This document shows positions 208-55,214 of a DNA stretch of 56,388 nt, piece by piece. This DNA is from Candidatus Saccharimonadales bacterium. GTDB lineage: Bacteria; Patescibacteriota; Saccharimonadia; Saccharimonadales; UBA10212. The notes under the pieces are model-generated. The model made no database searches. It was not told the DNA's origin and saw only the letters and a list, made by a program, of their open reading frames with translations. The translations under genes and the position numbers were made by a program. Position 1 is the first letter of the stretch. Each line of letters opens with the position of its first letter. The stretch covers positions 1 through 56,388 of the forward strand of contig JBBDKW010000018.1 in assembly GCA_040879175.1 (NCBI GenBank). Direction: 5' to 3'.

Positions 208-1167
208 TTAGATTTCGGTTTTGACACTCGGCCCCATTGTACTTGCGATGTACGCCGACTTGACATACGTACCCTTAACGCTTGCCGGCTTCGCCGAACG
301 TACGCTGGTGGCAATTGTTTGGGCGTTCTCAAGCAGTTTCTGCGGGCCAAAGCTCACTTTGCCGATTCCAAGATGAATTATCCCGCTCTGATCGACACGA
401 TATTCGACTCGGCCGGCCCTTGCTTCTTTTACAGCCTTGCCAGTATCGGTTGTGACTGTGCCGCTTTTAGGGTTGGGCATTAGCCCTTTTGGACCTAGTA
501 AACGGGCATATTTGCCAAGTTTAGACATAAGAGCGGGAGTAGAAATCAGAATATCGAAATCTACCCTTTCCTTATCGAGTGCTGTTAAGATTTCTTCGTT
601 GCCGGCAATATCGGCGCCGGCCTTTTTAGCCTTATCAATATCATCACCTTCAGCAAAAACGGCAATTCTAACTGCCTTGCCGGTGCCGTGCGGCATAACC
701 ACCGTATCTCGGACATTCTGATCAGATTGCTTTGGGTCTACCGCCAGGTTTATATGCATCTCCACTGTGGCGTCGAACTTGGAAGTAGAGGTCTTGGCCG
801 CCAGATCTACGGCTTCGGCTAAATTATAGACTTTGGACTTATCAATTTGTTTGATGGCTTCCCGATATTTCTTACCAGCGCGTTCGTCGTGGCTGCGCGG
901 TGATTTTTGCTCGATTTTCGGCTTCTCCGCTTTGGCGTCTTTTGCCGGTTGCTCTTTCTTTCGTTCTTGCTTAGCAACTTTCTCGTCAGCCACCTTCACG
1001 GCTTTGGCGCTGCGCTTCCCGGCTTTTGCGACCACAGCCTCTTCTTGCTGCGATTTTTTCCCAGTAGTGAGCTTTCGCGTGGCTTTGCCGGTATCCGCCT
1101 CAGCGGATAGTCGCGAAAGTCTACTACTGGGTTTCGCAATCTTATCTGTTTCTTTAGCGTCAGTCAT
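208..1167 (-). CDS. rplA: 50S ribosomal protein L1 with a ~95-aa Lys/Ala/Glu-rich N-terminal extension
   Basis: The 319-aa ORF has a core from GKKYREAIKQIDKSKVYNLAEAVDL onward that is canonical L1. The ATG lies 3 nt after the rplK stop, and there is no in-frame ATG/GTG/TTG near the core start. Confidence 0.95.
   Translation of the reverse strand: MTDAKETDKIAKPSSRLSRLSAEADTGKATRKLTTGKKSQQEEAVVAKAGKRSAKAVKVADEKVAKQERKKEQPAKDAKAEKPKIEQKSPRSHDERAGKKYREAIKQIDKSKVYNLAEAVDLAAKTSTSKFDATVEMHINLAVDPKQSDQNVRDTVVMPHGTGKAVRIAVFAEGDDIDKAKKAGADIAGNEEILTALDKERVDFDILISTPALMSKLGKYARLLGPKGLMPNPKSGTVTTDTGKAVKEARAGRVEYRVDQSGIIHLGIGKVSFGPQKLLENAQTIATSVRSAKPASVKGTYVKSAYIASTMGPSVKTEI
1060..1131. mobile_element. Nested-palindrome MITE-like element, copy 1, in frame inside the rplA 5' extension
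   Basis: The sequence cccagtagtgagctttcgcg...tatccgcctcagcggata...gtcgcgaaagtctactactggg shares both ~20-nt arms and the inner hairpin with 7192..7273. It is flanked by TTTC on both sides. Confidence 0.55.
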
Positions 1168-1600: not shown

Positions 1601-1822
1601 TTATCCGTTGCTTTCCAAGGTTCTTGTGCTCATATCTATAGTTGCGTCGCTGCACGATATTGAAATTCTGTTTAGCTCTTGGATTCGAAGAGCTACTTCG
1701 TTACGAATCAGTCCCAGCAATTCCTTATCGTCTTTAGCCTTAGCATCGGCGACTAATCCGTAGAGTTCGCTTGTCGGTAACTTGCTTAATTGCGCGTCAA
1801 AATACTGTCTTTGCTGTTCCAT
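1601..1822 (-). CDS. Hypothetical 73-aa helical protein filling the nusG-rplK junction
   Basis: The ATG at 1822 is 1 nt after the nusG stop, and the stop is 4 nt before the rplK ATG. The sequence begins MEQQRQYFDAQLSKLPTSELYGLVADAKAKDDKELLGLIRNEVALRIQEL. I recognise no family. Confidence 0.45.
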   Translation of the reverse strand: MEQQRQYFDAQLSKLPTSELYGLVADAKAKDDKELLGLIRNEVALRIQELNRISISCSDATIDMSTRTLESNG

Positions 1823-1823
1823 T

Positions 1824-2366
1824 TTATACTCTCTTAACCTGCAGGCCGTCCAGCTCAACGGGCGTTTCGCGGCCGAACATATTGACCAAGACTTTTAACT
1901 TACCCTTTTGGGCATCAATCTCGTTAATTGCACCGTCAAACCCCTTAAACGGCCCGTCAATGATGTTAACCACCTCGCCTACCCTGTAATCAAACCTGTG
2001 CTTCGGTTCTTCACGGCCCATTCGCTTCATTATTTTGTTAATCTCGTCTTCGCTCAATGGAGTTGGCTCTGAGCCTGTCCCGACAAATCCGGTTACATTA
2101 GGCGTATTGCGCACGATATACCAGGCATCTTCACTCATTTTCATCTCCACCAACACATAGCCTTGGAAAATCCGCTTTTCGACAACCTTCCTTTTACCAT
2201 TTTTAATCTCTATCATCTTCTCCTTAGGCACCAGGACTTGGAAAATTTTGTCGGCCATATCAAGCGACTCCGCCCTTTGTCGGATACTTTCGGCTACCTT
2301 CTCTTCGTATCCGGAGTAGGTATGAATCGCGTACCAATGTTTGGTCGAATCGTATCTTTTCCTCAT
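1824..2366 (-). CDS. nusG: Transcription termination/antitermination factor NusG
   Basis: The 180-aa ORF has an NGN start (WYAIHTYSGYEEKV) and a KOW motif (GEVVNIIDGPFKGFDGAINEID). It follows secE. Confidence 0.95.
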   Translation of the reverse strand: MRKRYDSTKHWYAIHTYSGYEEKVAESIRQRAESLDMADKIFQVLVPKEKMIEIKNGKRKVVEKRIFQGYVLVEMKMSEDAWYIVRNTPNVTGFVGTGSEPTPLSEDEINKIMKRMGREEPKHRFDYRVGEVVNIIDGPFKGFDGAINEIDAQKGKLKVLVNMFGRETPVELDGLQVKRV

Positions 2367-6224: not shown

Positions 6225-6311
6225 GCTAGGGTAGCGAAGTGGCCAAACGCATCTGACTGTAAATCAGACGGCCTTGCGCCTTCGGGGGTTCGAATCCCTC
6301 CCCTAGCACCA
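6225..6311 (+). tRNA. tRNA-Tyr (anticodon GUA), long variable arm, CCA encoded
   Basis: Manual cloverleaf: GCTAGGG/CCCTAGC acceptor, anticodon arm TCTGA-CTGTAAA-TCAGA, 15-nt variable arm, T arm GGGGG-TTCGAAT-CCCTC. Confidence 0.9.
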
Positions 6312-6480
6312 TCCTCCGTCGCAAAGCCCTTTATGGGCTTAGCTATGGAGGATTTTGTATGGTAGATTCGAACGCCCGAGGGAAGCCTTCGGGGTGAGAC
6401 ATGCCGGTGGCATGTCGCAAGGAAATCTTCCGATGGCAACTTGTTGCCAATCGCGAAGTTTCGGGGTCGCGGAACGTGAC

Positions 6481-6502
6481 TCGAATCCCTCCCCTAGCAC
6501 CA
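6481..6502 (+). repeat. Exact 22-nt duplicate of the tRNA-Tyr 3' end (T-loop 3' half, acceptor 3' strand and CCA)
   Basis: tcgaatccctcccctagcacca occurs at 6290..6311 and again at 6481..6502. Confidence 0.9.
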
Positions 6503-6519: not shown

Positions 6520-7170
6520 TTAGATGACTACTTTTCGAGGGCGAAGGACTTTTTTGGGGCGGTTGGGTAGCGCGCTTCGGTTAAGCTTGCGGCGGACTTT
6601 AACAGCTTCTTCGCCCATACCGCGCAATTCGTAGGCATTCATCAGCAGGTTATAGGTTTCGTTGTTCGGCTCTAACTCGGCGGCTTTTTCTAGTTCTTGC
6701 AGCATAAGTTTATCGTTGCCGAGTTTTTCCTGGACTTTGGCATAAGCTATATGGCGGGCAGCCAAGTCATCCTCAAGCTTTAGAGCCTGCTCGAATGCCG
6801 TTGCTGCTTTCTGGTAGTTCTCTGTCTCGTAATAGATTAACCCGAGGTTATGCAGGCTTGAAGCGCTGGGTTCGATACTACTGGCTATTTCGAAGCAGTC
6901 GATAGCATCTTTGTACTCTCGCTGCTTGGCGTATAAGATTCCTAGGCGGTTATAGGCTGCGGCATTTTTCTCATCAATTTTTAGGATAGTTAGGAGTGCT
7001 TTTTCAGCCCGTAAAAAGCGGTTTTCGCGCATACCGTGGTGGGCGATTTCCCAGAGCTTGGCTAACCGGTCGCCCAAACGACGCGTCACTAACGTAGTTT
7101 CGTCATCGATGTATCGGCTGTGGCGAAGTACAAAGTACGCAATCAGTACTAACAGTAATAGGGCATACAT
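6520..7170 (-). CDS. TPR-repeat protein with an N-terminal membrane anchor
   Basis: The 216-aa ORF starts with a TM helix (MYALLLLVLIAYFVL). Repeated A..YN.LG..Y....Y..A...FE.A TPR signatures follow. Confidence 0.7.
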   Translation of the reverse strand: MYALLLLVLIAYFVLRHSRYIDDETTLVTRRLGDRLAKLWEIAHHGMRENRFLRAEKALLTILKIDEKNAAAYNRLGILYAKQREYKDAIDCFEIASSIEPSASSLHNLGLIYYETENYQKAATAFEQALKLEDDLAARHIAYAKVQEKLGNDKLMLQELEKAAELEPNNETYNLLMNAYELRGMGEEAVKVRRKLNRSALPNRPKKVLRPRKVVI

Positions 7171-7191
7171 TGCTTAGGTAATTATAACAGA

Positions 7192-7273
7192 CCCAGTAGT
7201 GAGCTTTCGCGGTTATCCGCCTGCGCGGATACAGTATCGACAGAGTCGATAGTCGTGAAAGTCTACTACTGGG
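7192..7273. mobile_element. Nested-palindrome MITE-like element, copy 2 (intergenic, holB-TPR spacer)
   Basis: It has the same arms as 1060..1131 (left arm 20/20, right arm 21/22), an inner hairpin tatccgc/gcggata, and an extra palindrome tatcgac-aga-gtcgata. It is flanked by CAGAC on both sides. Confidence 0.6.
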
Positions 7274-7277
7274 CAGA

Positions 7278-8165
7278 CTAACTTTTTAGATTAAGAACCA
7301 AGCTTAGACAGATTAGCCGGGGGTTGGCGTTTTTATCAAGCGACTCAAGCGAACTCATCGTTAATTTTCTGTCGCCTGCCAGTTTTTGTGCCTGTTTTGG
7401 CCTTTTACCTAAGGCGCTGCGGTGCAGCGCCGCCAGAATCTTGGTAAGAGCTTCCAGAAGCAATCTAAGCTCTTCTTTATCCTGGCTTATTTGATCAAGA
7501 GACAACAGCCGCTCGTATTGGGTCTGTTTCAAAAAAGACTTGGCCTTTTCTATCGCCTGCTTAAGCGGATGCGAGCCTTCCTCAGCCAGAAGCGCATCTA
7601 ATAGGGCTGAACCTCCCTGGCTTAAACGCCAAGCCGATTCCATTTTCTGACGGCTAATCCGGCCGCCATAGAACCTATCCGCTTGCTGTAACGTCACCGG
7701 ATGCGCCCAGATGTGCTGGCAACGCGAAACGATTGTCGGCAGCAGGCTCAACTCGTAAGGCGCCGTCAGCAAGAACATCGTGTCTTCGTTGGGCTCTTCC
7801 AATATCTTAAGCAGGGCGTTCTGGGCTTCGGCGCTTAAATTCTGTGAATCCTCGATTAAAACAACCCGGCGGATAGCCGATTTCCCGGGAGTTCTTAAAC
7901 GTAAAAAGCGGTTAATTTCTCTTACAGTGTCGATTGATATATCCTGTTTGCCCTCGTTCTTCTTGGCGTAAAAGAAGTAGGGATGGGCTAAAAGCTGTTG
8001 CATTGACTTGAGACCCAAGGCCGAGCAGGCCAACGAGTAAACCAAGCCTCGCTTACCGCTGCCCCTCTCACCCAGAATAAGTAGCGGGCTATACGGTTTT
8101 TGCAAGAAATAATCGGCCTGTTCTTTAGTTTTAGGGTGAACTAGCAAATTGCTTAAGTCAGTCAT
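7278..8165 (-). CDS. holB: DNA polymerase III subunit delta-prime
   Basis: The 295-aa ORF has a degenerate P-loop (GERGSGKRG), NALLKILEEP and SRCQ motifs typical of clamp-loader delta-prime. Confidence 0.8.
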   Translation of the reverse strand: MTDLSNLLVHPKTKEQADYFLQKPYSPLLILGERGSGKRGLVYSLACSALGLKSMQQLLAHPYFFYAKKNEGKQDISIDTVREINRFLRLRTPGKSAIRRVVLIEDSQNLSAEAQNALLKILEEPNEDTMFLLTAPYELSLLPTIVSRCQHIWAHPVTLQQADRFYGGRISRQKMESAWRLSQGGSALLDALLAEEGSHPLKQAIEKAKSFLKQTQYERLLSLDQISQDKEELRLLLEALTKILAALHRSALGKRPKQAQKLAGDRKLTMSSLESLDKNANPRLICLSLVLNLKS

Positions 8166-10087: not shown

Positions 10088-10237
10088 TTGAATCTATTTT
10101 ACATTTTTCGTTTAATATTTAACATTGATTTTTTCATTTTAATCATTGGTTTTTCCGCAGAAATGACTAAATGTCAGCTGTTAGATAAATGTGTAATGTA
10201 AAATGTAAAATGCCAAATACTTAACTTGTTAGGTATT
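10088..10237. repeat. AT-rich mirrored array of CATT/AATG heptamer units (array A), ending in the rpsI terminator hairpin
   Basis: The left half has CATT units and the right half AATG units, with AATG starting at 10188, 10195, 10202 and 10209. The hairpin aaatacttaac/gttaggtattt lies at 10215..10238. Confidence 0.7.
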
Positions 10238-22377: not shown

Positions 22378-22496
22378 CTCCTATCGTCGGTGTAATTTTC
22401 AATTTACAATTTACGTTTTTCATTAAATTTACATTTAGCCATTTTCCATTTGCAGCTACATTGATAAATGATAATTGGAGTGACGCAGTCACGACT
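22378..22496. repeat. AT-rich heptamer array B splitting rplB from rpsS
   Basis: The 119-nt spacer reads aatttac aatttac ... catttag ccatttt ccatttg ... cattgat aaatgat. The small hairpin gtgac-tgc-gtcac follows the rplB stop. Confidence 0.65.
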
Positions 22497-30080: not shown

Positions 30081-30196
30081 TAATTTACCATTTTATATTT
30101 ACCATTTTACATTTAATTAGCATTTAATCATTTAAACATTTGGCAAATGGCAAAATGATAAATAATTGGTAAATGTTAATTGATAAATGGTAAATA
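30081..30196. repeat. AT-rich mirrored CATT/AATG heptamer array C
   Basis: CATT starts at 30089, 30103, 30110, 30121, 30129 and 30137. After the centre ggcaaatggc, AATG units follow at 30146, 30154, 30172 and 30186. Confidence 0.7.
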
Positions 30197-30226
30197 TAAT
30201 ATTACTTGACTAGTCAAGTAATATTA
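30197..30226 (-). terminator. Perfect 30-bp palindrome overlapping the fusA stop; probable terminator hairpin or operator
   Basis: The palindrome taatattacttgactagtcaagtaatatta has perfect 15-bp arms. On the minus strand it is followed by TATATTTACCATTTATC. Confidence 0.5.
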
Positions 30227-44574: not shown

Positions 44575-44700
44575 CAATGAGCAATGAACAATGAGCAATT
44601 GACAATGAATTATCAATGTAACAATGATTCAATGCATTATTTGAGCATTGGCTATTTGTCCATTCATTGAACATTGAAAATTTGTCCATTGAGCATTTAT
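44575..44700. repeat. Heptamer array D with opposite polarity (CAATG units first, CATTG units second) in a divergent promoter region
   Basis: CAATG/CAATT starts at 44575, 44582, 44589, 44596, 44603, 44614, 44622 and 44630. CATT(G) starts at 44635, 44646, 44661, 44665, 44672, 44687 and 44694. Confidence 0.75.
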
Positions 44701-49025: not shown

Positions 49026-50267
49026 CTATTCTAATTCTACCAGGGCAGAGTCCTTGTAGGCTTTGCCGCGGCGCAGAAGTAACCGGCCGTTCTGGAAGTC
49101 GCGCGGCTCGAATGTATCACGTGTTACCTGTTGACCGTTAATATATACACCGCCATTTGCAAGTATTGTTCTCGCAATTGAGTTAGAGGCGACAAGTCCT
49201 GTTTTTACTAAAGCATCTATGATGCTTCCGACATCTCTTGCTCTGGTAGAAGGTACCTCATTTCTGATTTGTGCTAACTCTTCCTGTGTAGCCCCAGAAA
49301 TAGATACTTGACTAGTCAAGTATTTCGTAACTCCGGTGGCGGCGCTACTTTCCGAGCCATGCACCAGCTTTGTGACCTCTTCGGCTAATTTTTTCTGGGC
49401 CTTTCTCTGTGATGGGTCTACCTTATGCTCGCTCACCGCCTGCTCTATCTGTTCTTTGGGTAACAGAGTGAAGATTTTCAAGTAGTTTTCGACGTCCGCA
49501 TCGTCGCTGTTAATCCAAAACTGGTAAAACTGCGTCGGGCTGGTTTTTTGGGTGTCCAGCCACACTGTTCCGGCCTCAGTTTTGCCGAATTTCCGGCCTG
49601 TCGCTTTATCAACTACCAGCGGCATGCTTAGGGCGTGGACTTCTTTGCCTTCTTTCTTACGAATAAGCGCCACCCCCGAAAGCATATTACCCCATTGGTC
49701 CGAGCCGCCAATCTGCAACTCCACAGCGTGATTTTTAAACAGCTGCCAATAATCATACCCCTGGATTAGAGAGTAACTGAACTCGGCGTAACTGACGCCG
49801 CTGCCGCCCTCACCCATCCGCTCCCTTACAAACTCGCGCTGCATCAGCTCGGTCATAGAAAAACTCTTGCCAACCTCTCGTAGAAAATCGAGGTATTTGA
49901 CGTCCGCCAGCCATTTATAGTTGTCTGCCGGCGTAAAGTGTTGGCCGGCAAATAGGCCGGAAACTTGCTCTTTAATAGCCTCGGTGTTACGCAGGATTTC
50001 CTCGCGCGGCTGCAGCTCGCGCTCCTCAGTCTTACCACCTGGGTCGCCAATCAAACTGGTAGCACCGCCTACCAGCAAAACGGCCTTCCAGCCGCCGTCA
50101 ATCAGTCTTCTGGCGAGCAATAGCGCTGCCAAATTGCCGATAGTCAAACTATCTGAAGAGGCATCTACGCCGTGGTAGAAAGTCTTGGGTTCATCGAGCC
50201 AACCCAAATCGGTAAAGGTTTTGTCTTTTACCAGCCCGCGCCAGGCCAAATCTTCACTCAAGCTCAT
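49026..50267 (-). CDS. tyrS: Tyrosine--tRNA ligase
   Basis: It starts MSLSEDLAWRGLV and contains GGATSLIGDPGGK, KFGKT and a C-terminal S4 domain. I chose the ATG at 50267; the track's 504-aa version adds 91 non-homologous residues. Confidence 0.92.
   Translation of the reverse strand: MSLSEDLAWRGLVKDKTFTDLGWLDEPKTFYHGVDASSDSLTIGNLAALLLARRLIDGGWKAVLLVGGATSLIGDPGGKTEERELQPREEILRNTEAIKEQVSGLFAGQHFTPADNYKWLADVKYLDFLREVGKSFSMTELMQREFVRERMGEGGSGVSYAEFSYSLIQGYDYWQLFKNHAVELQIGGSDQWGNMLSGVALIRKKEGKEVHALSMPLVVDKATGRKFGKTEAGTVWLDTQKTSPTQFYQFWINSDDADVENYLKIFTLLPKEQIEQAVSEHKVDPSQRKAQKKLAEEVTKLVHGSESSAATGVTKYLTSQVSISGATQEELAQIRNEVPSTRARDVGSIIDALVKTGLVASNSIARTILANGGVYINGQQVTRDTFEPRDFQNGRLLLRRGKAYKDSALVELE
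49304..49323. repeat. Perfect 20-bp palindrome inside tyrS sharing an 18-bp core with the fusA terminator palindrome
   Basis: The palindrome is atacttgactagtcaagtat. The core tacttgactagtcaagta is identical to that at 30203..30220. Confidence 0.85.
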
Positions 50268-53763: not shown

Positions 53764-55110
53764 TTAGTCTTTTTCCAGAAACGTATTGAGTGCCCTACGC
53801 ACGTCAGTAACCGACAGCAAAAACGCCGGCTTCCTACCTGATCTTACAACCGGGCCGATTGCCGCCTCAAAACCGAGTTTTTTGGCTTCGGCCAGGCGTT
53901 TTTCTAAAAAAGGCACGTGGCGCACTTCACCGGAGAGCCCTGCTTCACCAAACACCACGGCGTTTTTCTTCAGTTGCATTCCTTTGGCGGCGCTAGCGAT
54001 AGCCATACACACAGCCAAATCAGCCGCCGGCTCGGTTAATCGGATGCCGCCGACGATGTTGACGTAAATATCGCGGTCAGCCAGCTTTAGTTTGGTGCGT
54101 CTTTCCAGCATGGCAATCAGCAGATTCACGCGGTTCAAATCAATGCCGCTGGCCGTCCGTTTGGGATAACCGTAACTCGTAGGATTGACCAAGGCTTGCA
54201 CTTCAACGAGTAGCGGCCGGCTGCCCTCCATGGTCGCGTGGACTACCGAGCCGTCGCTGGCCTGGCGCTCAGCCAGCAATGCCGCCGAGGGGTTACTAAC
54301 CGCCTGCATACCCTTATCTGTCATTTCAAAGATTCCGGCCTCTGTTGTGGCGCCGTAGCGGTTTTTTACCGCCCGCAGTATTTTGAAACCACCATAACGG
54401 TCGCCTTCCAGCTGCAGCACCACGTCTACGATATGTTCTAAGACCTTTGGCCCGGCAATCGAGCCTTCTTTGGTAACGTGACCGACCAAAACCAATGCCG
54501 TATTGGTCGATTTTGCCGCCGCGCTCAAAAGCTGGGTACTGTTGGTAACTTGGCTGATGTTGCCGGCAGCCGAAGTGATCTCGTTGACGGCAATCGACTG
54601 CACCGAGTCCATAATCACGACGTCGAAATCGCCGGAGGCGATCGTTGTCGCGATATCGTTCGTAACCGTAGAAACGGCCAGTTGAAGCGATTTGGCCTTA
54701 GTCCCTAGCCTTTCTGCCCGCAACGCTATCTGTTGGCCGGATTCTTCGCCGCTGACATATAAGACTCTTTGTTCGCCGGCGATATTGTTGGCAATTTGTA
54801 GTAGCAAAGTGCTTTTACCCATACCCGGCTGTCCGGCCAGCAGGTTGACGCTGCCGGCTACCAGTCCACCGCCCAAAACCTCATCAACATCAGATATTTT
54901 AGTAGAAACCCGTTTCGTCTTGGCGGTTGCCGCGTTGGCCACCGATTCAATATTTAAGCGCTTACCGCTGGCGCCGGCGGTCGAAGTGCTGACCTCAACT
55001 TGCTCCTGTAAAGTGTTCCACTCACCGCAAACCCGGCAACGACCGGTCCACGAGGTGCTTACAGCCCCGCAATTACCACAGACGTATTTGACTCCCAAAC
55101 GTTTCGCCAT
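53764..55110 (-). CDS. radA: DNA repair protein RadA/Sms
   Basis: The 448-aa ORF has a zinc ribbon (CGNCGAVSTSWTGRCRVCGEW), Walker A GQPGMGKST, a KNRYG motif, and a Lon-like C-terminal domain. Confidence 0.95.
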   Translation of the reverse strand: MAKRLGVKYVCGNCGAVSTSWTGRCRVCGEWNTLQEQVEVSTSTAGASGKRLNIESVANAATAKTKRVSTKISDVDEVLGGGLVAGSVNLLAGQPGMGKSTLLLQIANNIAGEQRVLYVSGEESGQQIALRAERLGTKAKSLQLAVSTVTNDIATTIASGDFDVVIMDSVQSIAVNEITSAAGNISQVTNSTQLLSAAAKSTNTALVLVGHVTKEGSIAGPKVLEHIVDVVLQLEGDRYGGFKILRAVKNRYGATTEAGIFEMTDKGMQAVSNPSAALLAERQASDGSVVHATMEGSRPLLVEVQALVNPTSYGYPKRTASGIDLNRVNLLIAMLERRTKLKLADRDIYVNIVGGIRLTEPAADLAVCMAIASAAKGMQLKKNAVVFGEAGLSGEVRHVPFLEKRLAEAKKLGFEAAIGPVVRSGRKPAFLLSVTDVRRALNTFLEKD

Positions 55111-55214
55111 AAATACATTCTACATTTACCATTTAACATTTGACATTTATTTTTTATTTACCAATGAGTCAATGCTTAATGTTAAATAAATGCAAAGTGG
55201 GCAATGCTAAATGC
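55111..55214. repeat. AT-rich mirrored CATT/AATG heptamer array E
   Basis: CATT starts at 55116, 55123, 55130, 55137 and 55144, in exact 7-nt steps. After the centre tttattttttattta, AATG starts at 55163, 55171, 55178, 55189, 55203 and 55210. Confidence 0.8.

Follow-up and report, generated by a model that had tools for sequence, protein, structure and literature searches.

Short palindromic repeats spread over a reduced bacterial genome are best known from Rickettsia. Rickettsia palindromic elements (RPEs) measure ~100-150 nt and lie within genes in nearly half of the cases in some RPE families (Ogata et al. 2000 via PMC10969869). Their insertions are repeatedly found in frame and without stops in housekeeping genes, adding a peptide that the host protein tolerates, and no transposase is known for them. 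Miniature elements of the MITE type such as Correia/NEMIS, ERIC, RUP and Nezha are small and non-coding, carry inverted repeats, are bordered by duplications and occur in many dispersed copies, with hairpin-forming transcripts and occasional intragenic fusions. The REP unit is a self-palindrome of 20-40 nt tagged by a 5' GTAG or CGTC (PMC3733652). Many REP/REPIN palindromes accompany a low-copy nuclease gene, RAYT (TnpA-REP), flanked by inverted copies of the REP itself, and their structure is conserved beyond their sequence. Many of these traits have counterparts in the element family described here, which also shows a GTAG near the element end.

Two groups of GIY-YIG proteins are of relevance as well. 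Slx1 cuts branched and stem-loop DNA, and Slx1/UPF0213 (YhbQ-like) enzymes share their fold with an open reading frame found in relatives of the element. In a phylogenomic survey, the Slx1/UPF0213 clade is described as one of vertically inherited repair enzymes, and selfish GIY-YIG genes are derived from the other, UvrC-like lineage (PMC1564403). The free-standing and intron-encoded GIY-YIG homing endonucleases (I-TevI, Seg proteins) are products of selfish genes located between or within host genes.

The locus of interest lies in a window of 56,388 nt, the whole stretch of DNA that was analysed, from a metagenome-assembled Saccharibacteria genome. The original prediction placed a 72-nt nested palindrome with ~20-nt imperfect inverted arms inside the gene for ribosomal protein L1, and it is present as described (Table). 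The right arm pairs with the left one except for a conserved GAG/TCT asymmetry. An inner hairpin had been noted too; its arms are found, its loop however comprises 4 nt and not 5. In the predicted fold the two interior hairpins (1081..1109) and the outer stem form a three-way junction with a folding energy of -41.7 kcal/mol (z = -7.4). Whereas shuffled sequences lead one to expect 0.00-0.01 occurrences of the 20-mer arm, the window contains 3-4. On the minus strand, inside the ORF at 208-1167, the element reads KPSSRLSRLSAEADTGKATRKLTTGK.

Table. Features of the two element copies and of their surroundings in the window.
Feature	Position	Strand	Details
Element copy 1, palindromic MITE	1060..1131	+	72 nt; inside rplA codons 13-36; GAG-type end first
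Copy 1, left terminal inverted repeat, GAG-type end	1060..1079	+	cccagtagtgagctttcgcg (feature table: CCCAGTAGTGAGCTTTCGCG)
Copy 1, right terminal inverted repeat, AGA-type end read inward	1112..1131	+	cgcgaaagtctactactggg (feature table: CGCGAAAGTCTACTACTGGG)
Copy 1, interior hairpin ggc-ttt-gcc	1081-1089	+	small second hairpin
Copy 1, interior hairpin tatccgc-ctca-gcggata	1092-1109	+	arms 1092-1098 / 1103-1109, loop ctca
Copy 1, target-site duplication, left	1057..1059	.	TTT; TTTC counting base 1060
Copy 1, target-site duplication, right	1132..1134 (5)	.	TTT; from comparison with the L117 empty site
rplA (ribosomal protein L1), long form	208..1167	-	319 aa
ATC (Ile85) codon, start of the NCBI 235-aa rplA call	913..915	-	alternative start, element outside the CDS
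Element copy 2	7192..7273	+	82 nt, intergenic; site empty in L117
Copy 2, target-site duplication CAGA, left	7188..7191	.	4 bp
Copy 2, target-site duplication CAGA, right	7274..7277	.	4 bp
Copy 2, neighbouring holB-like gene	7278-8165	-	
Copy 2, neighbouring TPR gene	6520-7170	-	
Family terminal ends			written CCCAGTAGT...

The closest L1 orthologue (P0001, 91% identical) belongs to a syntenic relative, L117, in which both element sites of the window are unoccupied. Its rplA is shorter by exactly 75 nt, i.e. 25 codons; without these codons the rplA of the window is colinear with it (885 nt each). Read on the minus strand, the empty site is GC-G-AAAAAA-TCG and the filled site GC-GAAA-[element]-AAAAAA-TCG. 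Element and target-site duplication together thus make up a 75-nt insertion, and both the size of the insert and the TTT(C) duplication were correctly foreseen in the original prediction. The duplication measures 3 nt (TTT) unless the shared terminal base is counted as a fourth, and it is off the YWWR consensus of the family. As the closest orthologue lacks exactly 25 codons and is otherwise colinear, the segment is a discrete indel at the nucleotide level and not a conserved protein segment. At the second site L117 lacks 86 nt, the 4-bp duplication included. This intergenic copy, announced as near-identical, is real and matches at its ends (39/40 terminal bases identical), whereas the interiors differ (72 vs 82 nt for the elements).

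Pattern scans of public contigs revealed at least 117 unique copies with paired ends, all of them on Saccharibacteria/Patescibacteria contigs and mostly with target-site duplications. These and the following counts are lower bounds based on the matches listed in the scans. Given so many copies elsewhere, the match at 7192-7273 is not a local gene-conversion artefact, as had been considered. Both conditions named in the original prediction as refuting it are thus contradicted, and its interpretation is supported. Matches in other taxa are single arms only, among those listed. Scanned viral contigs gave nothing but chance single-arm matches, hence there is no sign of phage carriage. A length of 71-93 nt is seen in 93/117 listed copies, and 106/117 combine one GAG end with one AGA end, asymmetric at the same three positions. 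In an alignment of 93 copies, the first 17 nt of the GAG-type end hardly vary. GTAG takes positions 5-8 of each arm, the single arm not being palindromic in itself. An exact duplication of 4 bp borders 65 of the 117 listed copies, one of 5 bp borders 10 and one of 3 bp borders 14, with the weakly palindromic consensus YWWR. The collected loci contain no 24-nt excision footprints, which would consist of 12 + 12 nt from the arms.

The structure is well conserved within the family. Apart from column 19:76, the 17 predicted pairs of the 20-bp outer stem are each kept in 83-93 of 93 copies, and column 19:76 itself shows compensatory changes (AU 42, CG 39, UA 7). Two hairpins constitute the interior in 83/93 copies (mean z = -4.1), the fold being conserved and the sequence freely variable. 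The family agrees with MITEs in that its members are short, have no transposase gene of their own, possess terminal inverted repeats and duplications, are dispersed and polymorphic in presence and absence. It differs from the bacterial MITEs mentioned above by its asymmetric ends and by an interior in which the fold is conserved with variable sequence, in place of a conserved sequence. No palindromic MITE of Saccharibacteria/Patescibacteria and no GIY-YIG gene bounded by terminal inverted repeats and target-site duplications was found described in the literature. The element family is apparently undescribed in Saccharibacteria so far.

Taking the insertion together with its family, we conclude with good confidence that the segment at 1060-1131 is a mobile element of the MITE type whose insertion into rplA kept the reading frame. 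Insertion, empty sites, family, duplications and preserved frame are observed directly, and translation through the insert is inferred. The best explanation includes that the family is a non-autonomous MITE specific to Saccharibacteria.

The only coding members among the matches listed are elements of 312-313 nt taken up entirely by a single ORF, which encodes a GIY-YIG nuclease resembling Slx1/YhbQ and not a DDE transposase. In all six unique listed elements of >212 nt this ORF fills the element end to end. Each of the 312-313-nt elements is placed precisely at the start codon of a host gene, where TATG is duplicated; at least five different loci, from different genomes, are occupied in this way. 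PF01541 is detected in the ORFs of the 312-nt relatives (E = 1e-14 to 1e-16). The ORF is present in hundreds of variants, and 83 of the best 120 homologues begin with MPSSELS, a peptide that results from translation of the inverted repeat. Where 20-30 contigs share an identical GIY protein, copies at several loci could be rejected, as each such protein represents a single locus sampled repeatedly. A second homologue in L063 has no convincing inverted repeats of its own. When the 56-kb window, though not the rest of the genome, was searched with the GIY-YIG ORFs by tblastn, no such gene was found. The protein is a bare domain of 104-107 aa that retains the catalytic residues Y, Y, R, H and E. 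Its predicted fold comes nearest to UPF0213 and Slx1 (Foldseek to Slx1: probability 1.0, rmsd 2.1-3.7 A) and matches I-TevI poorly (E = 1.5).

Since no transposase-sized partner exists among the matches listed, the GIY-YIG nuclease is the leading candidate for the mobiliser, albeit unproven. The identity of the enzyme is an inference from these associations which we put forward tentatively and with clear reservations. Even more tentatively, the 312-313-nt relatives may constitute a new type of autonomous transposon: a single ORF for an Slx1-like GIY-YIG nuclease, with repeats encoding the N- and C-terminal tails and the start codon borrowed at a host TATG, which would mobilise itself and hundreds of short derivatives, including the copy in rplA, via the three-way-junction hairpin or cruciform. 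In the best explanation of the family as a whole, mobilisation takes place in trans, with the nuclease of the 312-313-nt members as the most likely agent, presumably recognising a hairpin or cruciform structure. As an autonomous transposon, the 312-313-nt element would lack its own start codon as well as a promoter and a ribosome-binding site and would insert at the TATG of a host start codon, whereby the duplication may regenerate the host ATG.

Instead, the short elements as well as the GIY-YIG cassette could be passengers of an unsampled conventional DDE transposase, with the GIY-YIG gene carried along like the cargo of a mobile insertion cassette. IS1380 and IS5, with duplications of 4-5 bp, are candidate families. 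Inverted repeats, a 4-bp duplication and a YWWR target form the classical signature of DDE transposition. GIY-YIG nucleases, to our knowledge, only cut or hydrolyse DNA, and we know of no strand-transfer or ligation step for this fold; given a fold that only cuts, the origin of the target duplications remains unexplained if the GIY-YIG nuclease is the mobiliser. Moreover, many bacterial MITE families have no known partner (PMC10969869), which is compatible with an unsampled transposase. However, among the ~130 copies listed no pair of ends lies >313 nt apart, i.e. no DDE transposase ORF was seen between ends. Lone ends are not listed in Saccharibacteria-like contigs either, contig-edge truncations and two degenerate copies aside. 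The sole cargo seen among the matches listed is the GIY-YIG ORF that fills its element, and the conserved folded interior would be unneeded by a DDE enzyme binding duplex ends. We regard passengers of a DDE transposase as less likely than not, though by no means ruled out, as a rare partner carrying a transposase may be absent from the matches listed.

Other mobilising systems fit less well. REPs insert without duplicating their target and depend on an HUH/Y1 enzyme for movement, whereas here duplications are usual, the only gene seen between the ends is of the GIY-YIG type and the unit bearing it occupies different loci from one genome to the next; a REP/RAYT system was rejected due to the target duplications in most listed copies. 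In contrast to Slx1/UPF0213 genes, the GIY-YIG gene lies between inverted repeats with a target duplication and is placed on host start codons. Homing endonucleases carry a long DNA-binding domain, and their genes are copied by recombination into one long cognate site without inverted repeats or duplications. A homing endonuclease was rejected in view of the bare domain, the at least five loci, the inverted repeats with TATG duplication and a fold nearer to Slx1 than to I-TevI.

Regarding the host gene, L1 carries an N-terminal extension of ~90 aa, of which the insert forms residues 13-37, and residues 1-81 are predicted to be disordered. The extension is a conserved ORF with motifs common to ~20 aligned orthologues. 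A mobile yet untranslated element is conceivable if L1 starts downstream, at the NCBI start or another internal one, so that the element would lie in the rplK-rplA spacer or leader as one more intergenic copy. NCBI indeed calls L1 proteins of 235 aa here and in two relatives (P0003, P0009, P0010), and an in-frame GTG internal to rplA downstream of the insert cannot be excluded as start. Most family copies are intergenic. With a dN/dS of just 0.50 compared to 0.17 for the L1 core, the extension gives only weak, sequence-based evidence of constraint. The exact 319-aa L1 has no record in other assemblies. Against a downstream start, the NCBI call begins at an ATC codon, whereas the ATG of the long form follows the rplK stop after 3 nt and is preceded by GGAGG ~10 nt upstream. 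The extension is free of stops over ~95 codons, the other two frames having 2 and 8 stops, and its motifs TAKKSQK, AKAGKRSAKA and EEKxAKEERKK are kept in orthologues down to ~60% identity. Furthermore, the insert amounts to exactly 25 codons and is stop-free in the frame used (CCC AGT AGT ... ACT GGG = PSS...TTG), as expected if the frame matters. An untranslated element is hence improbable, and the shorter NCBI rplA calls in the clade probably miss the conserved N-terminal extension.

The in-frame position of the insertion in rplA has parallels within the family, in which ~5% of the copies are in-frame, stop-free gene insertions. These were found in rplA, gyrA, khpB, an NAD-binding oxidoreductase gene and a bPH_2 (membrane-protein) gene; in the latter four, the sum of length and duplication is divisible by 3. 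Restoring the empty sites computationally gave no convincing case of a frame-breaking insertion in mid-gene; all that emerged was an antisense ORF judged spurious and, in ruvA, an insertion at the 3' end of the gene. The comparison to RPEs drawn in the original prediction fits in terms of behaviour. The present elements differ from RPEs by a length of 71-93 nt, 20-nt inverted repeats, a 4-bp duplication, the low intragenic share, GIY-YIG-coding relatives and an unrelated host lineage. Membership in an RPE family is implausible in a Saccharibacteria genome; the likeness is an analogy, in that the element appears to work like an RPE without being one.

Instead of being selfish DNA, the palindrome could also serve the rplK-rplA operon as a structured RNA or a regulatory site, such as an L1-binding or attenuator hairpin. 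The structure is very stable on both strands, and the L11-L1 operon of E. coli is autoregulated by binding of L1 to the mRNA. Yet the operon of the closest relative does without the element, the family occurs with target duplications and in both orientations at >100 unrelated loci, and Rfam gave no match to either copy of the window, neither at gathering thresholds nor at E <= 1, which makes a regulatory function very improbable. That the 25 residues are ancestral in L1 and were lost in relatives, or are an assembly artefact, can practically be dismissed: orthologues do differ in length in the same linker region that holds the insert, but the segment ends in inverted repeats, is bordered by a target duplication, matches nucleotide sequences in unrelated loci and genomes (e.g. 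L158), is flanked on both sides by synteny with L117, and its peptide is found in no L1-context protein of a 5.8-billion-sequence collection (single match: an R3H-domain fragment).

With an in-frame mobile element as the preferred reading, the following course is proposed. One copy would have landed 12 codons into rplA after the split from the nearest sampled relative, in what appears to be a length-variable, disordered linker of a lineage-specific L1 extension. Based on the total of 75 nt and the stop-free frame, the ribosome is proposed to read through the insert, whereby L1 would gain 25 residues in a tolerant region. Selection would eliminate gene-disrupting copies, and this would account for the fact that the surviving intragenic copies seen here are in frame or at gene ends.

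As our data show, selfish palindromic DNA of an active family is present in the tiny genomes of Saccharibacteria (CPR/Patescibacteria), and it appears able to alter essential proteins, L1 and GyrA among them, with the cell surviving, a parallel to RPEs in an unrelated lineage with reduced genomes. Palindromic insertions are a source of length variation in the extensions of ribosomal proteins, and such repeats will confuse gene calling and assembly. If the link to the GIY-YIG protein holds true, a structure-specific nuclease from a clade regarded as vertically inherited repair enzymes would drive a transposon that borrows its start codon. Such a transposon would add a new type to the known mobile elements and might serve as a compact tool for manipulating DNA.

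The NCBI contig (56,388 nt, from a metagenome-assembled Candidatus Saccharimonadales genome, L1 call P0003) carries the palindrome within the minus-strand ORF of ribosomal protein L1 (208-1167), where it would be translated as PSSRLSRLSAEADTGKATRKLTTG. Its 20-nt arms pair throughout except at a GAG/TCT triplet and enclose two small hairpins. Folding energies are -41.7 kcal/mol (z = -7.4) for the plus strand and -39.1 kcal/mol for the mRNA strand. The original prediction described this region correctly overall, save for the inner hairpin loop, which has 4 nt and not 5. The window holds 3-4 occurrences of the arm sequence, with 0.00-0.01 expected by chance. The second copy had been called near-identical; this is true of its ends (39 of 40 terminal bases) but not of its interior, which differs and is 10 nt longer.

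Both insertion sites are empty in a relative. Within the protein collection the nearest L1 is P0001 (294 aa, 91% identical), which aligns as MPDTKETGKTAK-KSQKEE with MTDAKETDKIAK-(25 aa)-KSQQEE of the window, and its contig L117 is syntenic over TPR, DHH, L33, SecE, NusG, L11 and L1. On the DNA level L117 reads ...GC GAAAAAA TCG... compared to ...GC GAAA(CCCAGTAG...CTACTGGG)AAAAAA TCG... in the window. The window gene is longer by 75 bases, which can be read as 72 nt of element with a 3-nt duplication or as 71 nt with GAAA. Without these 25 codons both genes are colinear over 885 nt. This confirms the predicted frame-preserving insert of 75 nt, and the alignment of relatives identifies the 25 codons as a discrete indel absent from the closest orthologue. 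At the second site L117 shows TAATCTG-TTATAAT and the window TAGTCTG-(82 nt)-TCTGTTATAAT, an insertion of 86 nt with a 4-bp duplication. Hence both window copies were gained after the lineages split.

An N-terminal extension of ~90 aa with the conserved motifs TAKKSQK, AKAGKRSAKA, EEKxAKEERKK and EKPKxEQKPPRS is shared by about 20 L1 orthologues from Saccharimonadales that were aligned, with identities as low as ~60%. The element lies inside a linker between the motifs that varies from ~6 to 45 residues. The long ORF starts with an ATG 3 nt past the rplK stop, preceded by GGAGG ~10 nt upstream, and its frame is free of stops in the extension, with 2 and 8 stops in the other two frames. Between window and L117, dN/dS is 0.50 in the extension and 0.17 in the core. 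AlphaFold predicts residues 1-81 without secondary structure (pLDDT <50). The NCBI calls of 235 aa in three related genomes (P0003, P0009, P0010) have an in-frame ATC as first codon. They drop the ~84-aa extension kept by orthologues (window 913-1167) and are regarded as homology-guided truncations, probably a systematic start-site error across the clade. Given the conserved motifs, the stop-free frame and the ATC start, the ribosome likely reads through the insert, which is inferred and not shown. The element-encoded peptide is almost absent from a collection of 5.8 billion proteins, and the rplA allele is hence not a common one.

Other features of the window are included in the table. The tRNA-Tyr gene is followed by 169 nt that end in an exact copy of its last 22 nt. 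L117 lacks this extra segment, and compared with the window its tRNA-Thr/tRNA-Tyr pair is inverted with respect to the neighbouring genes. The segment has no match in Rfam and might be what is left, in the manner of an att site, of an integration or inversion. AT-rich arrays are built from TTTACCATTT and TTTACATTT words. A perfect 18-nt palindrome, TACTTGACTAGTCAAGTA, occurs identically at two positions and looks like an operator site. A conserved ORF of 85-86 aa without a Pfam match lies between nusG and rplK in both the window and L117.

The family was surveyed by searching one genome per GTDB species and JGI metagenome contigs with a degenerate arm pattern and pairing the arms by script. 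The further copies that had been anticipated exist: at least 117 unique paired-end elements were found, all in Saccharibacteria/Patescibacteria contigs among the matches listed. Listed arm matches in other taxa are single and without partner, as chance predicts. No copies were found in the viral contigs scanned, no Rfam family matches the rplA element or the second copy, and no published description was found in the literature searched. The rplA element appears to belong to a large, seemingly undescribed family. Lengths are 71-93 nt in 93 of the at least 117 copies, 124-130 nt in 4, 154-160 nt in 11 and 312-313 nt in 6. The remaining three span 98, 106 and 212 nt, whereby the 98- and 212-nt spans result from one element nested in another. 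Elements inserted into or beside one another were seen at the loci tabulated, among them a 74-nt copy nested in a 160-nt-class copy. Two further loci each have a pair of copies separated by 4-8 nt, one of them abutting a GIY-YIG element.

Coordinates of family copies and of other window features (L numbers denote contigs)
Feature	Position	Remark
rplA element	window 1060-1131	CCCAGTAGTGAGCTTTCGCG-tggctttgccggtatccgcctcagcggatagt-CGCGAAAGTCTACTACTGGG (left arm-interior-right arm); in-frame copy
Second copy	window 7192-7273	
In-frame copy	L207:1106-1183	78 nt; gyrA (DNA gyrase subunit A), C-terminal beta-propeller domain; essential gene
In-frame copy	L151	khpB/jag, downstream of R3H domain
In-frame copy	L110	NAD-binding oxidoreductase gene
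In-frame copy	L229	bPH_2 membrane-protein gene
In-frame copy	L063	last codons of long ORF
312-313-nt element	L055:2908-3219	host gene ftsA
312-313-nt element	L032:7334-7645	host gene ftsA
312-313-nt element	L099:5065-5377	host gene fur-like
312-313-nt element	L118:3004-3316	host gene after ruvB
312-313-nt element	L128:1169-1481	HAD hydrolase host gene
312-313-nt element	L174:1040-1352	right-hand flank GATG, not TATG
Nested or adjacent elements	L085:1249-1484, L243:4038-4273, L255:1559-1738, L032:7244-7645	
Half-arm copies	L160:1397-1509, L205:3321-3431, L223:153-261	CCCNGTAGTGAG, full element, TCTACTACNGGG
Segment past tRNA-Tyr	window 6312-6502	terminal repeat 6290-6311 = 6481-6502
AT-rich arrays	window 10089-10218, 22394-22441, 30083-30202, 44576-44686, 55110-55171	51-nt inverted arms at 30083-30195
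18-nt palindrome	window 30203-30220, 49305-49322	first adjoins AT-rich array
nusG-rplK ORF	window 1601-1858 (minus strand); L117:5318-5578	

Among the matches listed, 106 of 117 copies combine one GAG and one AGA end at positions 10-12; the two ends are therefore consistently distinguishable. Exact flanking direct repeats measure 4 bp in 65, 5 bp in 10 and 3 bp in 14 of the at least 117 copies, with the consensus Y-W-W-R. Those 3-bp cases that were inspected, the rplA copy among them, fall within A/T runs. Insertions, empty sites, duplications and a weak YWWR target preference are documented. When the 93 short copies are aligned, the outermost 17 nt at either end are nearly invariant and the inner stem end covaries (column 19:76 is AU in 42, CG in 39, UA in 7). 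With the arms removed, 83 of 93 keep a two-hairpin interior (mean z-score -4.1) while the hairpin sequences differ. Therefore structure and not sequence is conserved inside the element, and fold and asymmetric ends alike are demonstrably maintained. This points to recognition as folded single-stranded or cruciform DNA, or as RNA. In three copies either flank bears an additional 12-nt half-arm that stops right at the GAG/AGA triplet, and the 4-bp duplication lies beyond the half-arms. These unexplained copies suggest a second cleavage position at the GAG/TCT mismatch. Solo 24-nt footprints were not found in the loci examined.

Family copies are mostly intergenic, yet six of those listed are read through in frame, showing that such intragenic copies survive. 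Length plus duplication is divisible by three in all five computed (all but L063). With empty sites restored computationally, no convincing case of a frame-breaking mid-gene insertion was seen. One copy at the 3' end of ruvA provides the ruvA stop codon. Since each end of the element leaves two of the three frames open, in-frame survival is plausibly due to chance followed by selection. Rickettsia palindromic elements (RPEs) show the same in-frame intragenic behaviour (PMC10969869).

The only coding members among the copies listed are the 312-313-nt elements, and the ends are thus exclusively associated with one kind of ORF within this set. Their layout is T-ATG : CC(C/T)AGTAGTGAGCTTTCTGT...ACAGAAAGTCTACTAC(T/C)(A/G)GG : T-ATG. 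A single ORF takes its ATG from the left duplication, continues across the left repeat (M-PSSELS) and codes for a GIY-YIG domain (PF01541, E = 1e-14 to 1e-16); its stop lies in or just past the right repeat (after QKVYY or RKSTTGYA). Where the downstream gene was examined, the right TATG copy is the start codon of the host gene. At the fur locus, the orthologous contigs L169 and L170 have an empty site. A protein search returned 527 homologues; MPSSELS starts 83 of the best 120, and most end with QKVYY or RKSTT(G/R)YA. Copies per genome seem to be few, because identical proteins on 20-30 contigs are always at a single locus. The protein model has a core pLDDT of ~90 and disordered repeat-encoded tails. 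Structure comparison places it nearest to bacterial UPF0213 and to the Slx1 nuclease domain, with UvrC and I-TevI being far poorer matches. Slx1 is a structure-specific endonuclease. A superfamily survey from 2006 regards the Slx1-like clade as repair enzymes passed on vertically and traces the selfish GIY-YIG genes to the other lineage (PMC1564403).

We infer, tentatively, that the GIY-YIG protein may be the mobilising nuclease and would recognise the folded ends. Chemistry is where this inference is weakest, as there is no account of how cutting alone would give a 4-bp duplication. To our knowledge, DNA cutting is the only known activity of GIY-YIG enzymes. A serious rival, which we consider only slightly less likely than the GIY-YIG protein, is a conventional DDE transposase supplied in trans by an insertion sequence that was not sampled. 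However, the ~130 copies listed include neither a transposase-sized partner nor end pairs more than 313 nt apart. Among the matches listed, arms without a partner in Saccharibacteria-like contigs are contig-edge cut-offs or two degenerate copies. The remaining probability goes to something other than the GIY-YIG protein or a DDE transposase.

Taken together, the original prediction of an RPE-like palindromic element in frame in rplA is borne out. Our data support a miniature inverted-repeat transposable element (MITE) with RPE-like behaviour in rplA of a CPR bacterium. The insertion itself already fits within the concepts of MITE and RPE. What exceeds known families is the structured interior, together with the constant asymmetry of the ends and the GIY-YIG relatives that consist of a single ORF. 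If the GIY-YIG nuclease is the engine, the family would represent a new type of transposon.
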